A stretch of DNA of 64,000 nt from a bacterium (GTDB taxonomy: Bacteria; SAR324; NAC60-12), in contig CBDDTI010000747.1 of NCBI GenBank assembly GCA_965233585.1, positions 576,001 through 640,000 on the forward strand, in the 5' to 3' direction. This document shows, one piece after another, positions 49,672-62,018 of this stretch (position 1 is its first letter; each line of letters starts with the position of its first letter). Position numbers and translations under genes: made by a program. A model generated the notes under the pieces. The model saw only the letters and a program-made list of their open reading frames with translations. It searched no databases and was not told the origin of the DNA.

Positions 49672-50148
49672 TCACAGGAGTTGATGCAGATAAGCGGCAA
49701 TGCCAACAGCGCAATAGCCCCTAAAGGCAATACATTTGGCTTTGCCAAGCAATTTGCCCTCAGCTGAATAAGTGTAACTCCAAAAGGTGTGCCAGTCGTA
49801 AGTGCCAAGAAACAGTCCCGTTGCATCATACAATGTGCGATGCTTCGCCCAACCAACGAGCGACCTGTCCCCATCTTCTTTGACTACAAAAAGCTCAAAT
49901 CGCCCACCTAAATTGACAATTCCCACCTTCCCAAGCAGTTCTCCTGTCAATGACACAATTTCAACATAATCAATATAAATCAAAACCCTTGCCAGTGCTT
50001 TTTCGTCTGCAGATAGAATTTCTGTTTTCAGTGGTCTTCCAAGAGGTTTGCCTAATTGCAAAGAATGACCTGTTTGCAACATGACCAAAAAAGTCACCCC
50101 AATTAACACAATGACAATGATGATGGCTTTGATTATGATGTGAAACAT
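49672..50148 (-). CDS. Hypothetical membrane-anchored protein
   Basis: N-terminal TM and a beta-rich body; overlaps the upstream esterase, suggesting translational coupling. Confidence 0.55.
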   Translation of the reverse strand: MFHIIIKAIIIVIVLIGVTFLVMLQTGHSLQLGKPLGRPLKTEILSADEKALARVLIYIDYVEIVSLTGELLGKVGIVNLGGRFELFVVKEDGDRSLVGWAKHRTLYDATGLFLGTYDWHTFWSYTYSAEGKLLGKAKCIAFRGYCAVGIAAYLHQLL

Positions 50149-54299: not shown

Positions 54300-54869
54300 C
54301 TAGATTGTCAGAATTTCTTGTTCTTTTTCAGCAATCAAGTCAGACACTTTTTCAATAGCTTGGTCTGTCATTTTTTGGATTTCGTTGCGTGCTTGCTTCA
54401 AGTCATCTTCAGAGATGGCTTTGTTCTTTTCTAACTGCTTTGCCTCGTCATTGGCATCGCGTCTGATATTCCTGATGGCGACTTTATGTTCTTCGCCTAT
54501 CTGACGCACTTGTTTTGCTAGTTCTTGACGTCTTTCTTCAGTTAAAGAAGGAATGGTTAGTCTGACGACATTGCCATCATTAGAGACAGCACCGCCCAAG
54601 TTTAGCTTTTGGATGCTTCTTTCAATTTCTTTGATCGCTCCCTTGTCCCAAGGATTGACGACTAACAGCTGAGCCTCGGGTGCTGTAATTGCCCCAACTT
54701 GTAGCATGGGAGTCATTTGTCCGTAATATGAAACTTTGACATTTTCCATCATGGCAGGAGAGGCTTGACCTCCTCTGACACCAATTAAATGTTTAGTGAG
54801 ACTTTGCAAAGCCCCGTCCATCTTGCTTGAGGCACTTTCGTAAACGTCTTGTAATGTTGCGCTAGTCAT
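54300..54869 (-). CDS. frr: Ribosome recycling factor (start ATG 54869)
   Basis: VSYYG, PWDK, LTEERR, AIRNIRRDAN; overlaps the pyrH stop. Confidence 0.96.
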   Translation of the reverse strand: MTSATLQDVYESASSKMDGALQSLTKHLIGVRGGQASPAMMENVKVSYYGQMTPMLQVGAITAPEAQLLVVNPWDKGAIKEIERSIQKLNLGGAVSNDGNVVRLTIPSLTEERRQELAKQVRQIGEEHKVAIRNIRRDANDEAKQLEKNKAISEDDLKQARNEIQKMTDQAIEKVSDLIAEKEQEILTI

Positions 54870-55600
54870 AATTTGTTTTGGGAACTGATGAGCGTGCCGA
54901 CATTTTCCCCACAAACTGCTTTGACGAGGGTGTCAGGGGAATTGATATTGACAACCATAATTGGAACATCATTGTCTTGACCAAAGCCGATAGAAGTAGA
55001 ATCCATCACACGCAAATTTTGTGTTAACATTTGGTTATAAGAAAGGCAAGAATACCTCAGGGCGTTTTCATGCACCATTGGGTCTTTGTCATACACACCA
55101 TCAATTTTAGTGGCTTTGATGACGATGTCTGCACCAACTTCTCTAGCACGAAACAATGCGGCAGAGTCTGTTGTAATGCCTGTTTGACCACAACCTGCAG
55201 CAAAGATGACCACACGTCCTTTTTCTAAATGACGAATAGCTCTGCGTTGGATGTAAGGCTCTGCCACTGCATTTGCCTCTATTCCAGACATGACACGTGT
55301 TTTAATCCCGTTGTTTTCCAAAAACTGTTGGAGTAAAAGGCTGTTCATCATTGTTGCCAGCATGCCAATATGGTCTCCTGCAACCCCTTGAATCCCGTAA
55401 TAGTCTATGAATTTTTGACTTCCACGAAAAACATTGCCTCCACCTACAACGATGCCGACTTCCATTGCCTCAAGCTGATAAACAGAGATGATGGCATGTG
55501 TTACAGAATCAAAAGCCTCTTTGTCAAAACCAAACCCTCCGTCACCACTCAGCATCTCCCCACTTAGTTTGAGTATAATCCTTTTGTATTGAGCCTTCAT
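54866..55600 (-). CDS. pyrH: UMP kinase
   Basis: LKLSGE, VVGGGNVFRG, TTDSAA, DGVYDKDP. Confidence 0.96.
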   Translation of the reverse strand: MKAQYKRIILKLSGEMLSGDGGFGFDKEAFDSVTHAIISVYQLEAMEVGIVVGGGNVFRGSQKFIDYYGIQGVAGDHIGMLATMMNSLLLQQFLENNGIKTRVMSGIEANAVAEPYIQRRAIRHLEKGRVVIFAAGCGQTGITTDSAALFRAREVGADIVIKATKIDGVYDKDPMVHENALRYSCLSYNQMLTQNLRVMDSTSIGFGQDNDVPIMVVNINSPDTLVKAVCGENVGTLISSQNKL

Positions 55601-55627: not shown

Positions 55628-57583
55628 TTAGAATTGTAACTTTGCAAATTGTTGAAGTGTGATTTGAGTGCCAAGTTCTTTGGAAGTGTCTTTGAGAAGT
55701 TGCTCAATCGTTTGGTCTGGGTTTTTGACAAATGGTTGTTTCAAAACACAAACTTCGTTCAGGAATTTTTTAAGACGTCCTGCGACCATTTTCTCAATGA
55801 TTTCGGGAGGCTTACCAGATTCTTGAGCTTGGGCAATAAAGATTTCTTTCTCTTTTTCAATCAATGCGGGATTGATTTCGTCAGGAGAGATAGATTCTGC
55901 AGGAGTCGCAGCAACGTGCATGGCAATATCTTTGGCAACTGCAGAAAGACGGGCTTGGTCGCATTCCCCCTTTGTTGCAAGGGCAATCAGTACACCAATT
56001 TTGCCAGTTGTATGCAGATACCCACCAATGACCCCTTGTTCTACTGAGACTTGCTTGGCGTCTAAAAATTGAACATTCTCACCAAGAGTGGCAATAGAAT
56101 CATTCAAAATCTCTTGGACTGTTTTGTCTGTGCTGACTTTTTGGTCTGCGAAGTCAGCAACCCCGTTGATTTGAGCATGCTTGCTGAGAGTTTGAAGTAA
56201 TTCTAAAAATTGCTCGTTCTTTGCTACAAAATCAGTTTCGCATGCAATTTGAACAAGTGCGGCACTAGTTTGTGAGTCATTGAAAGAAAGACCTATTCCT
56301 CCATCTTTGGTTTCTCGGTCAGATTTTTTGAGGGCTTTTGCCTGCCCCGTTTTTCTCAGATGCTCTTTGGCAGCCTCTAAATCACCCCCAACTTCTTGCA
56401 ATGCTTTTTTACACTCCATCATGCCAGCACCGCTGGCCTCCCTGAGTTCTTTGACTAATTTAGCATTGATCTTTCCGTCTGATTGATTTTCCATTGGTTT
56501 GGTAGTTTTTTCGGGTTCAGGGGTTGTGTCTGCTGGAGCGGCGGCTTTGCTAGCTTCTTTCTTATCTTTTTGGGAAGTAGCTTTGTCGGTCTCCTTAGTT
56601 GTGTTTGCTTGAGCATCGGCTTTGCCAGTTTCTTTCTTACTTTTCTCTGTCTTCTTTTTGGTGTCTGCTTTTTTTGCTTGTTCAGGAACGTTTTCTACTG
56701 AAGGCGAATCAGGGGCGTTGACCTGAACGTTTTCTTTTTGAGACTTGGCTTGAGATGCCTTTTTTTCTTCAATCTGTAAACGTTCTTCTCTCAATGCCTT
56801 ACCTTCTGAAGGCGAATCAGGGGCGTTGACCTGAACGTTTTCTTTTTGAGACTTGGCTTGAGATGCCTTTTTTTCTTCAATCTGTAAACGTTCTTCTCTC
56901 AGCGCCTTACCTTCTTTCACTGCAAGGCACAGAGTTTCTACAAAAAGCCTAATAGAGCGAATAGAATCATCATTGCCCGGTATCATCATAAAAAGGTCAT
57001 CAGGGTCAGAGTTAGTGTCAGCAATTCCAAGCACAGGAATTGAAAGTTTTTGGGCTTCACTAATAGCAAGATGTTCATGGTTACAATCAATGACAAAAAT
57101 GGCAGAAGGGAATTTTGTCATGTTGCGAATCCCCCCAAGCGATTGTTCTAACTTTTGACGTTTGCGATGGATTTGAAGAGCTTCTTTCTTCAGCAAAGAA
57201 GGGTAGCTTTCATCATCTCCTGCAAGGCTTTCATATTCCTCCAGCCTTGAGATAGATTGCCTAATCGTTGCAAAGTTAGTCAGCATGCCCCCCAGCCAAC
57301 GATGGCTGACATAGAAAGAGCCACATTCTGTTGCGTATTGTTTGATGATGTCTGACGCTTGCAACTTAGTACCGATGAACAGAACTTCCTTGCCTTCTTC
57401 ACTCAGTTGGCGAATGTATTCATACGCAGATTTGAGTTTTTGTAGGGTGTGTTGGAGATTGATGATGTGAATCCCCTGTTTTTCCCCATAGATGTAAGGA
57501 GCCATTTTAGGATTCCACCTTTGAGTTTGATGCCCGAAGTGGACACTTGCTTCCACGAAGCTCTGAAGAGAAATATTTGTCAT
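55628..57583 (-). CDS. rpsB-tsf: Fused 30S ribosomal protein S2 and elongation factor Ts in a single 651-aa ORF
   Basis: N-terminal S2 (VHFGHQ..WNPKM, RWLGGMLTNF, PGNDD), about 130-aa charged linker, C-terminal EF-Ts (LVKELREASGAGMMECKKAL, CETDFVA, IAMHVAA, QPFVK) with no intervening stop. Confidence 0.92.
   Translation of the reverse strand: MTNISLQSFVEASVHFGHQTQRWNPKMAPYIYGEKQGIHIINLQHTLQKLKSAYEYIRQLSEEGKEVLFIGTKLQASDIIKQYATECGSFYVSHRWLGGMLTNFATIRQSISRLEEYESLAGDDESYPSLLKKEALQIHRKRQKLEQSLGGIRNMTKFPSAIFVIDCNHEHLAISEAQKLSIPVLGIADTNSDPDDLFMMIPGNDDSIRSIRLFVETLCLAVKEGKALREERLQIEEKKASQAKSQKENVQVNAPDSPSEGKALREERLQIEEKKASQAKSQKENVQVNAPDSPSVENVPEQAKKADTKKKTEKSKKETGKADAQANTTKETDKATSQKDKKEASKAAAPADTTPEPEKTTKPMENQSDGKINAKLVKELREASGAGMMECKKALQEVGGDLEAAKEHLRKTGQAKALKKSDRETKDGGIGLSFNDSQTSAALVQIACETDFVAKNEQFLELLQTLSKHAQINGVADFADQKVSTDKTVQEILNDSIATLGENVQFLDAKQVSVEQGVIGGYLHTTGKIGVLIALATKGECDQARLSAVAKDIAMHVAATPAESISPDEINPALIEKEKEIFIAQAQESGKPPEIIEKMVAGRLKKFLNEVCVLKQPFVKNPDQTIEQLLKDTSKELGTQITLQQFAKLQF
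56698..56915 (-). repeat. 108-bp tandem duplication (36 aa) in the S2/EF-Ts linker
   Basis: Two copies of EGKALREERLQIEEKKASQAKSQKENVQVNAPDSPS starting at 56698 and 56806; two synonymous nucleotide differences. Confidence 0.97.
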
Positions 57584-57853
57584 GTTCGCTTAAAATGCAG
57601 TGAAACGATTGATTAAAAAATTGAAGGTTTGTCAAAAAGCACCATTCTTCTTGAATAAGAAAACGATACGGTTTCAAACGCAAAACCCGTCATTCTAAAT
57701 GGAAATAAAAACAAAAGCAACTACTTCCTTGTTAAGACAACTTAATGTGAGCATGCTGAGAATAGAATAAAAAAGTATTGATATTCTCTAAAAATTCTTG
57801 CAAGATGCTATGTTTGCAACAAATTTTCAACACTTTTATTTAATGAAGGCAGA

Positions 57854-61202: not shown

Positions 61203-62018
61203 ATGATGGAAAGAACACAAGAAGCGATTTTGTATCATTACGAGCTTGAAAAAAGGCTTGCAAGTCAGCTTCTGAGTGCAAATAAGCAAGAGAGAAAAGT
61301 TTTATACACAGAACTTTATGAAGAGTTGCTTCAATCTGTCCCCTATCTCACTGCCCCAAGTGACTCTGCATACAAACAGAAACAGGCAGAAAGGCAGGTA
61401 CAAAATATTCAACCGTTTTTAAGTAAACAAACTTCTTTTCTTGAGCTGGGTCCAGGAGACTGCAGTGTTTCGCTAAGGGTGGCTCGTTTGGTGAAGCAAG
61501 TCTATGCAGTGGACGTTAGCCCAACTATCACTCAAAATCAAAAGACTCCCGATAACTTTCACTTGATCATCTCTGATGGAACAAACATTCCTGTTCCTCC
61601 TCATAGTATTGATTTTGTTTATTCAAATCAACTTATGGAGCATTTACATCCAGATGATGCTTATGAACAGATGCAGAATGTTCTGTCTGCACTTGTTCCT
61701 AATGGCATTTATCTTTGTATGACTCCCAGTCGGCTCAATGGCCCACATGACGTCTCCAAATATTTTGACGATGTTGCCACAGGCTTTCACCTCAAAGAAT
61801 ATACAATCACTGATTTAAATAGACTTTTCAAAGAGGTCGGTTTTTCTAAAGTCAAAATATTGATTGGAGCAAGGGGAAGGTATATCAAGGCTTCTGTAAC
61901 CCCTTCTATTCTGCTAGAAAAAATGCTAAGTTTGCTACCTGCTTCAGTGCGTAAAAAAATCATGAGTTATCGCATAGTGAATGCTTTAGTTTATGTTCGT
62001 CTCATTGGCATCAAATGA
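61203..62018 (+). CDS. Class I SAM-dependent methyltransferase
   Basis: LELGPGD, AVDVS, DFVYSNQLMEHL. Confidence 0.85.
   Translation: MMERTQEAILYHYELEKRLASQLLSANKQERKVLYTELYEELLQSVPYLTAPSDSAYKQKQAERQVQNIQPFLSKQTSFLELGPGDCSVSLRVARLVKQVYAVDVSPTITQNQKTPDNFHLIISDGTNIPVPPHSIDFVYSNQLMEHLHPDDAYEQMQNVLSALVPNGIYLCMTPSRLNGPHDVSKYFDDVATGFHLKEYTITDLNRLFKEVGFSKVKILIGARGRYIKASVTPSILLEKMLSLLPASVRKKIMSYRIVNALVYVRLIGIK

Follow-up and report, generated by a model that had tools for sequence, protein, structure and literature searches.

In bacteria, ribosomal protein S2 (uS2) and elongation factor EF-Ts are encoded by rpsB and tsf, neighbors in the canonical rpsB-tsf(-pyrH-frr) cluster, where a stop codon and a spacer lie between the two genes. 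A polypeptide that carries both a ribosomal protein and EF-Ts has been described in chloroplasts, where it is the PSRP-7/EF-Ts polyprotein, PETs (PMC8343077 and PMC13684679), and the precedent that an earlier note on the DNA studied here had named is thus documented. According to PMC8343077, PETs was processed into PSRP-7 and EF-Ts in Chlamydomonas, and the Arabidopsis homologue was not. Here we analyzed a 64,000-nt stretch of a SAR324 genome (contig CBDDTI010000747.1 of assembly GCA_965233585.1, positions 576,001 to 640,000), called the window below, in which rpsB and tsf form a single open reading frame (ORF). Compared with the canonical cluster, the gene order was the same and both domains were full-length, but the stop codon and the spacer were missing, the start methionine of EF-Ts was lost, and a linker of 133 aa was present. 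The window protein resembled PETs in that a small-subunit ribosomal protein and EF-Ts are joined in one polypeptide. However, PETs carry an S1-domain protein and not uS2 as their ribosomal part, a Pfam scan found no S1 domain in the window protein, and PETs are nuclear-encoded and plastid-targeted with one or two EF-Ts domains. The likeness is best seen as an analogy and not as homology of the fusion event.

The ORF ran in one uninterrupted frame from S2 to EF-Ts with zero stops under translation table 11, and the ORF list together with the domain limits from Pfam and NCBIfam confirmed the 651-aa fusion that the earlier note had described (Table 1). In the S2 part, aa 10-225 matched PF00318 over positions 2-216 of the 216 in that profile (E 5e-88), and aa 4-227 matched positions 2-224 of 225 in the rpsB_bact model TIGR01011, scoring 306.5 bits where the cut-off is 76.3. 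The EF-Ts part matched the tsf model TIGR00116 at aa 371-647, with 251.5 bits against a cut-off of 104.05, and PF00889 at aa 441-639 (E 2.1e-60), and there was a weak match to EF-Ts_N at aa 373-415 (21.7 bits, under the cut-off of 33.2). Since the S2 and EF-Ts matches were full-length and above the curated cut-offs, both halves of the protein are complete as judged from these profiles. The motifs LVKELR...GAGMMECKKAL and CETDFVA, which we take to be the functional ones from the E. coli EF-Tu/EF-Ts structure, were present in columns that were invariant in the alignment of relatives. In a sequence search of the PDB, uS2 chains of solved ribosomes matched the S2 part with E values down to 9e-74, and 1efu_B matched the EF-Ts part (E 5.9e-47); no chain covering both domains was seen among the 60 of 78 matched chains that were listed. 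An alternative genetic code as the cause of the open frame was rejected, given that the frame was open and the other genes of the window were intact under table 11. The best explanation for the locus as a whole, to which we assign a probability of roughly 0.55, is a genuine in-frame rpsB::tsf fusion with a product of about 72 kDa, in which EF-Ts would be tethered to the 30S subunit. The gene fusion itself is real in this sequence and probably functional.

The linker between the two domains carried much of this reading. Its 133 residues comprised 26 Lys, 18 Glu, 18 Ala, 12 Ser, 11 Gln, 11 Thr and 9 Pro. The earlier note was thus right that about 130 residues are of low complexity, but the linker was rich in Lys, Glu, Ala, Ser, Gln and Thr rather than in Lys, Glu, Thr and Pro as it had stated. 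There were no in-frame stops in the linker, whereas the other two sense frames contained 2 and 10 and the antisense frames 4, 8 and 6, and when the linker was shuffled by mononucleotides 20000 times, an in-frame stop was lacking in only 24 cases. The frequency of G at codon position 1 was 0.38 in the linker and 0.39 in the EF-Ts part. The GC content of the linker was 0.42-0.46, like the flanking coding DNA, whereas it fell to 0.31 in the genuinely intergenic DNA that precedes the gene. Tandem Repeats Finder detected an in-frame duplication, overlooked in the earlier note, with a 108-nt unit of 36 codons and 98% matches that covered aa 223-295, so that it began within the last S2 helix and formed the first half of the linker. 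The two copies differed at two adjacent bases, and both differences were synonymous (GCG/GCA for Ala and CTG/TTG for Leu). Because of the open frame, the G content at codon position 1, the coding-level GC content and the in-frame duplication with only synonymous differences, the linker looks like coding sequence rather than a read-through spacer, and it reads as coding right up to the EF-Ts domain, as had been claimed from the letters alone. A consensus scan gave no promoter- or terminator-like sites on the coding strand inside the gene, with counts not above those in shuffled sequences, so this negative result is weak evidence. The linkers of relatives were all of low complexity and could not be aligned with one another. 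Repeats were also seen in other tails and linkers, namely a 41-aa duplication in P0241, which lies in the corresponding region but is not the one of the window, SMPSVNP in P0004, a 16-aa unit in P0022 and VNATV in L001, and S2 tails and linkers seem to grow by repeated tandem duplication.

The junction between the linker and EF-Ts was equally distinctive. The start methionine lay 7-8 residues ahead of the VKxLR motif in 108 of the 119 standalone proteins. In the fusion ORF this position was occupied by Gly/Asp, and the only methionine nearby was located 13 residues before VKELR. In the nearest full-length relative (P0002), the methionine was at position -11 and low-complexity sequence ran up to the EF-Ts domain, as in the window, and there was no methionine within 20 residues of the EF-Ts domain in two further fused relatives (P0003 and P0004). 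A lost canonical start combined with a clean, tail-like junction would not be the outcome of one misread stop codon.

Fused relatives were found in a protein search restricted to lengths of 358-1140 aa, of which the best 120 matches were examined. Both PF00318 and PF00889 were found in 118 of these, including the window protein, and the exceptions were P0005 and P0027. P0002 was itself fused, with 626 aa and a linker of 111 aa, and was 60.7% identical in the S2 domain and 64.1% identical in the EF-Ts domain. It was present on 2 contigs from two sources, and a one-off error is therefore unlikely for the window fusion. P0003, P0019 and P0004 were also fused, with domain identities of 41-53%, and their EF-Ts belonged to the same SAR324-like clade. 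Most of the fused database proteins came from other lineages and were 33-45% identical overall, with the same domain order as in the window and a low-complexity linker. Some carried only the name '30S ribosomal protein S2 [Spirochaetes bacterium]' or 'elongation factor Ts' in their source, and in the ESM Atlas a cluster of 263 members had been automatically named 'Elongation factor TS/Ribosomal protein S2 domain-containing protein'. A search of 1.84 billion cluster representatives (50% identity) gave 3483 matches at E up to 1e-30, and among the best 150, which were typed by domain, 19 had both domains, 126 had S2 alone and 5 had EF-Ts alone. The singularity that the earlier note implied did not hold, as fused S2-EF-Ts proteins were numerous in public protein sets. 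No paper on a natural bacterial S2-EF-Ts fusion was found among the titles and abstract openings listed, with subscription journals outside the coverage of the search, and the fusion is known to databases but apparently not to the literature.

The fused database proteins were of two kinds. Among the 105 in which the VKxLR motif was found, a methionine 5-8 residues before the motif, a range that includes the canonical position, was kept in 56 and absent in 49. When kept, it often followed a junction that resembled a translated spacer, for example ...RGELIEM..., and these proteins may result from a lost stop or from gene calling that read through it, with EF-Ts still starting separately. In the 49 without it, EF-Ts must work in the fusion or be cut from it if the linker holds no other start. 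The window fusion belongs to this second kind, with a clean, tail-like linker. Four proteins of 597-1068 aa (P0027, P0402, P0439 and P0463) showed EF-Ts matches without an S2 domain; the match was split into four or five separate stretches in P0402, P0439 and P0463, and P0027 contained UBA and other domains in addition. These four may be PETs-like proteins with multiple EF-Ts domains.

The fusion was rare when counted by genome. A scan of species-representative genomes gave 574 matching stretches, of which 80 were analyzed; two of these lacked one of the genes, leaving 78 loci for comparison, and no close relative of the window was among the 80. The two genes were in different frames at 49 loci, in the same frame with two or more stops at 19 and in the same frame with exactly one stop at 9, and only at one locus (L026) was the shared frame free of stops. 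Separate rpsB and tsf genes, which the earlier note had taken as the norm, were thus found at 77 of 78 loci. The single exception, a 598-aa ORF at 2924-4720 of L026 in an Acidobacteriota metagenome-assembled genome, was not accepted as a true fusion, since the translation of the spacer and of the EF-Ts core was garbled, and it is probably an indel-rich assembly artefact. The frequency of true fusions was accordingly about 0/78 in what is a biased reference sample. About one locus in 9 lies a single mutation or base-call error away from a fused ORF. The one-stop loci were L004, L028, L046, L051, L054, L057, L064, L069 and L079, and they included the isolates Brachybacterium rhamnosum JCM 11650 and Desulfatitalea alkaliphila M08but. 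The S2-EF-Ts fusion is rare per genome, yet it recurs across bacteria.

The nearest standalone EF-Ts proteins were 58-62% identical to the window domain and about 283 aa long, and those that carried a name were called 'SAR324 cluster bacterium' or 'Deltaproteobacteria bacterium'; a named SAR324 protein (P0254) was also present among the S2 matches. In the NCBI taxonomy, the SAR324 cluster is placed in Deltaproteobacteria incertae sedis. The description of the lineage as SAR324-like is based on these names and on the tree of EF-Ts domains. Phylogenetic trees were built from fused and standalone sets that came from length-restricted searches, so the proportions in them are not frequencies. An IQ-TREE analysis of 68 EF-Ts domains showed a SAR324-like clade of 61 rows (support 98) that contained 56 standalone and 5 fused proteins. 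The window protein (P0001) and P0002 fell into an unresolved trichotomy together with 13 standalone proteins (support 93), and P0003 with P0019 (support 99) and P0004 were placed elsewhere in the clade. The fused label required 6 changes on this tree. On a FastTree phylogeny of 228 domains (109 fused and 119 standalone), it required 11 changes, and the well-supported branches forced at least 5. The scatter of the fused state argues either for multiple origins or for both gain and loss of the fusion.

The fusion protein was modeled with AlphaFold2 from an alignment of 14 sequences. Both domains were predicted with confidence, and the predicted local distance difference test (pLDDT) was mostly 80-97 in S2. 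A helix at aa 208-249 extended out of the S2 domain, and the pLDDT fell below 50 at aa 251-266, 268-270 and 276-370. The predicted template modeling score was 0.41, and for this reason the two domains are not predicted to touch in any fixed way; the model suggests two folded domains on a disordered tether. By an estimate from polymer scaling, the ends of a disordered chain of 130 residues would lie roughly 90 Å apart, and its contour length would be close to 490 Å. A tether of that reach could sweep much of the ribosome surface, and the local concentration would be roughly sub-millimolar. The PDB contains engineered chains in which, by their molecule names, EF-Ts is linked to EF-Tu or S2 is linked to a peptide of S1 (3mmp, 4r71, 3agp and 4toi), so S2 and EF-Ts each tolerate fusion in at least one engineered construct.

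Long S2 tails were also common in proteins that were not fused, both within this lineage and outside it. In the SAR324-like locus L001 (4001-6453), where the genes were separate, S2 was 459 aa long with a tail of about 230 aa that ended in a stop codon, followed by a spacer of about 207 nt and then by EF-Ts in another frame with a canonical start. Two unfused S2 relatives of the window protein, P0247 and P0248, had long tails with total lengths of 352 and 357 aa, and of the best 150 cluster representatives, 126 had S2 alone and 116 of these were at least 300 aa long. The tail of such proteins ends in a stop, whereas the tail in the window continues into EF-Ts. Residues 1-352 of the window protein aligned to positions 1-352 of 382 in NF051451, an NCBIfam exception model named '30S ribosomal protein S2, sunset domain variant', with 268.9 bits against a cut-off of 710, and a full-text literature search for 'sunset domain' found no relevant paper.

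These comparisons suggest how the fusion probably arose and what it would do. In the simplest history, the S2 of this lineage would already have had a long, disordered C-terminal tail rich in Lys, Glu, Ala and Ser when the loss of the rpsB stop codon and of a short spacer joined the tail to EF-Ts, and the linker would since have evolved by in-frame tandem duplication. Translation from the S2 ATG would give the protein of about 72 kDa. uS2 is located on the solvent side of the 30S subunit between the head and the body, and in E. coli structures its C-terminus is disordered; EF-Ts in E. coli is made at roughly ribosomal stoichiometry. The uS2 part of the fusion would enter the 30S subunit on the solvent side, and the intact EF-Ts part would hang from it on a flexible tether of about 130 residues. 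S2 and EF-Ts would then be made 1:1, with one exchange factor beside each ribosome to recharge EF-Tu-GDP locally, and some free EF-Ts might also come from internal initiation at Met364. A bolder proposal, which we put forward tentatively and consider rather unlikely, is that EF-Ts is here a resident part of the ribosome, one per 30S subunit on a uS2 leash, that recharges EF-Tu-GDP in cis at the ribosome or polysome, and that the repeated, independent fusions, of S2 with EF-Ts across bacteria and of S1 domains with EF-Ts in plastids, reflect selection for local recycling and a strict 1:1 dosage and not just a stop loss that cells tolerate.

The sequence evidence does not choose among a tether, a processed polyprotein and a gene with two starts. 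If the gene gave two products, most of the working EF-Ts would be a free protein of about 32 kDa made from Met364, and the fusion, as a minor or tolerated side product, would do no more than lend S2 a long tail. Met364 (ATG at 56494-56492, where the earlier note had placed it) is the candidate start in question. The earlier note had seen no obvious Shine-Dalgarno (SD) sequence before it, and indeed there was no GGAG, GAGG or AGGA, but this did not serve as an argument against an internal start. An SD core was present at 8 of 50 gene starts in the window, with a mean SD pairing energy equal to the background, and initiation in this genome thus appears to be largely SD-independent, which is compatible with two products. 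With 42 of 50 genes lacking an SD core, SD analysis was discarded as an uninformative test of internal initiation, and because the genome hardly uses SD sequences, their absence at Met364 carries no weight. RNA structure was more suggestive. The mean local fold energy was -4.8 kcal/mol at 35 ATG starts compared to -10.4 kcal/mol at 199 internal ATGs, and the value at Met364 was -1.9 kcal/mol, less structured than 98% of the internal ATGs. However, the whole distal linker (aa 300-375) was likewise weakly folded, at -1 to -7 kcal/mol, so low structure is not specific to Met364. The methionines that the window protein and P0002 keep a short way ahead of EF-Ts, together with the canonical start methionine kept in more than half of the fused database proteins, are in favor of a second start, whereas the canonical start was lost in the window, P0003 and P0004 had no methionine close to the domain, and one methionine in about 14 residues is near chance expectation. 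We consider a gene of this kind possible but doubtful.

A processed polyprotein, in which a protease cuts the 72-kDa precursor in the linker and frees EF-Ts and S2 with or without its tail, has a precedent in the release of PSRP-7 and EF-Ts from PETs in Chlamydomonas (PMC8343077), and a long, exposed and disordered linker, as predicted here, would be an easy protease substrate. Yet the linkers, unalignable between relatives, contained no conserved cleavage-site sequence, the Arabidopsis homologue is reported as unprocessed in PMC8343077 as well, and no protease gene was adjacent, the neighbors being pyrH, frr, thrS and a gene for a general-type member of the M20 peptidase family. Processing is therefore improbable in our judgment. 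We give as little credence to an artefact or very recent accident, in which a sequencing or assembly error, or a fresh stop loss without consequence, joins genes that are separate in the living population. Such events do occur, as the garbled fusion L026 exemplifies, and the 9 of 78 reference loci that share a frame with a single stop, together with a Lys/Glu-rich tail in which many codons are one substitution away from TAA, show how close the fused state can lie. Against this stand a junction without spacer-like or garbled sequence, the absence of the canonical EF-Ts start methionine, the coding-like GC content and codon periodicity of the linker up to the domain, the same architecture in P0002 on its 2 contigs, and the 51 intact and densely packed ORFs of at least 150 aa in the window, which argue against an error-rich assembly. 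Another point in favor of an artefact is that the closest relative was called as separate pieces. One of these, P0241, was 323 aa long with an S2 domain 90% identical to that of the window and aligned to aa 1-306, and the other, P0144, was a 192-aa EF-Ts fragment, 81% identical, that aligned to aa 460-651 and started where the window has a Leu. The longest contig was 19,776 nt for both, and they are probably located on one contig. Since EF-Ts cannot be functional when its first 90 residues are missing, the locus was judged to be damaged, probably interrupted by a gap or frameshifts, with 150 residues missing. The comparison with relatives that the earlier note had proposed thus gave a divided answer, in that P0002 was fused and the closest relative was called as two genes at a locus that looks damaged.

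Several observations weigh against a genuine fusion that tethers EF-Ts to the 30S subunit. The closest relative was not called as one ORF, and a real stop after the S2 tail at that locus is possible. Part of the database support consists of read-throughs or errors, as seen from the 56 of 105 fused proteins that keep the start methionine and from the garbled L026. The SAR324-like EF-Ts proteins were mostly standalone (56 of 61 clade rows, from the length-restricted searches), and the scattered fused state may mean that the fusion is easily gained, easily lost and nearly neutral. Free EF-Ts from Met364, where the RNA is very unstructured like that of true starts, may be the main working form. 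With a view limited to 64 kb, another copy of tsf or rpsB may lie outside the window.

A tethered EF-Ts would bear on several questions. Textbooks treat EF-Ts as freely diffusing, and a natural form tied to a 30S protein would test whether diffusion limits EF-Tu recycling. It would also test whether the common and unexplained disordered tails of uS2 serve as scaffolds for translation factors. Genome completeness and marker pipelines that count rpsB and tsf separately can be misled by fusions or read-through calls, and roughly half of the fusions in databases have the look of the latter. Annotation at present gives such ORFs the name of just one part, 'S2' or 'EF-Ts'. Even if neutral, the fusion would be a clear example of operon neighbors with a disordered tail that fuse repeatedly.

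Table 1. Coordinates of the rpsB::tsf fusion ORF, its parts and adjacent features in the window
Feature	Positions	Strand	Description or basis
rpsB::tsf fusion ORF	55628..57583	minus	651 aa, ATG start, TAA stop, table 11
uS2 domain, aa 1-235	56879..57583	minus	PF00318, TIGR01011, AlphaFold2 pLDDT, PDB uS2 chains
Low-complexity linker, aa 236-368, predicted to be disordered	56480..56878	minus	Open frame, GC content, pLDDT
108-nt tandem duplication, 2.0 copies, in frame	56698..56915	minus	Tandem Repeats Finder
Met364 ATG, the only candidate internal start that gives the whole EF-Ts	56492..56494	minus	
EF-Ts domain, aa 369-651, and stop codon	55628..56479	minus	TIGR00116, PF00889, motifs, PDB 1efu_B
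pyrH (UMP kinase), 27 nt downstream of the fusion ORF	54866..55600	minus	TIGR02075, 267.8 bits
frr (ribosome recycling factor), ORF listed with a TTG start	54300..54914	minus	TIGR00496 matches aa 30-204
AT-rich divergent intergenic region between rpsB::tsf and pdhA	57584..57853		GC 0.31

The fusion ORF was followed by pyrH and frr, and pdhA, pdhB, the gene for pyruvate dehydrogenase E2 and lpxK were located upstream on the opposite strand, with the M20 peptidase family gene and thrS also nearby. The locus is the usual rpsB-tsf-pyrH-frr neighborhood of a Gram-negative bacterium. The divergent intergenic region presumably holds the promoter and leader of rpsB::tsf. No consensus promoter was found on its minus strand, and a search of all 64 kb against Rfam at gathering thresholds gave 0 matches, so neither a known rpsB leader nor another RNA family was seen. 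Two other ORFs of the window near the locus, at 61203-62018 (271 aa) and 49672-50148 (158 aa), had no NCBIfam match at E up to 1e-10. The frr ORF with its TTG start overlapped pyrH by 49 nt, and because the profile match begins only at aa 30, the true start of frr is probably a later ATG (MTSATLQ...).

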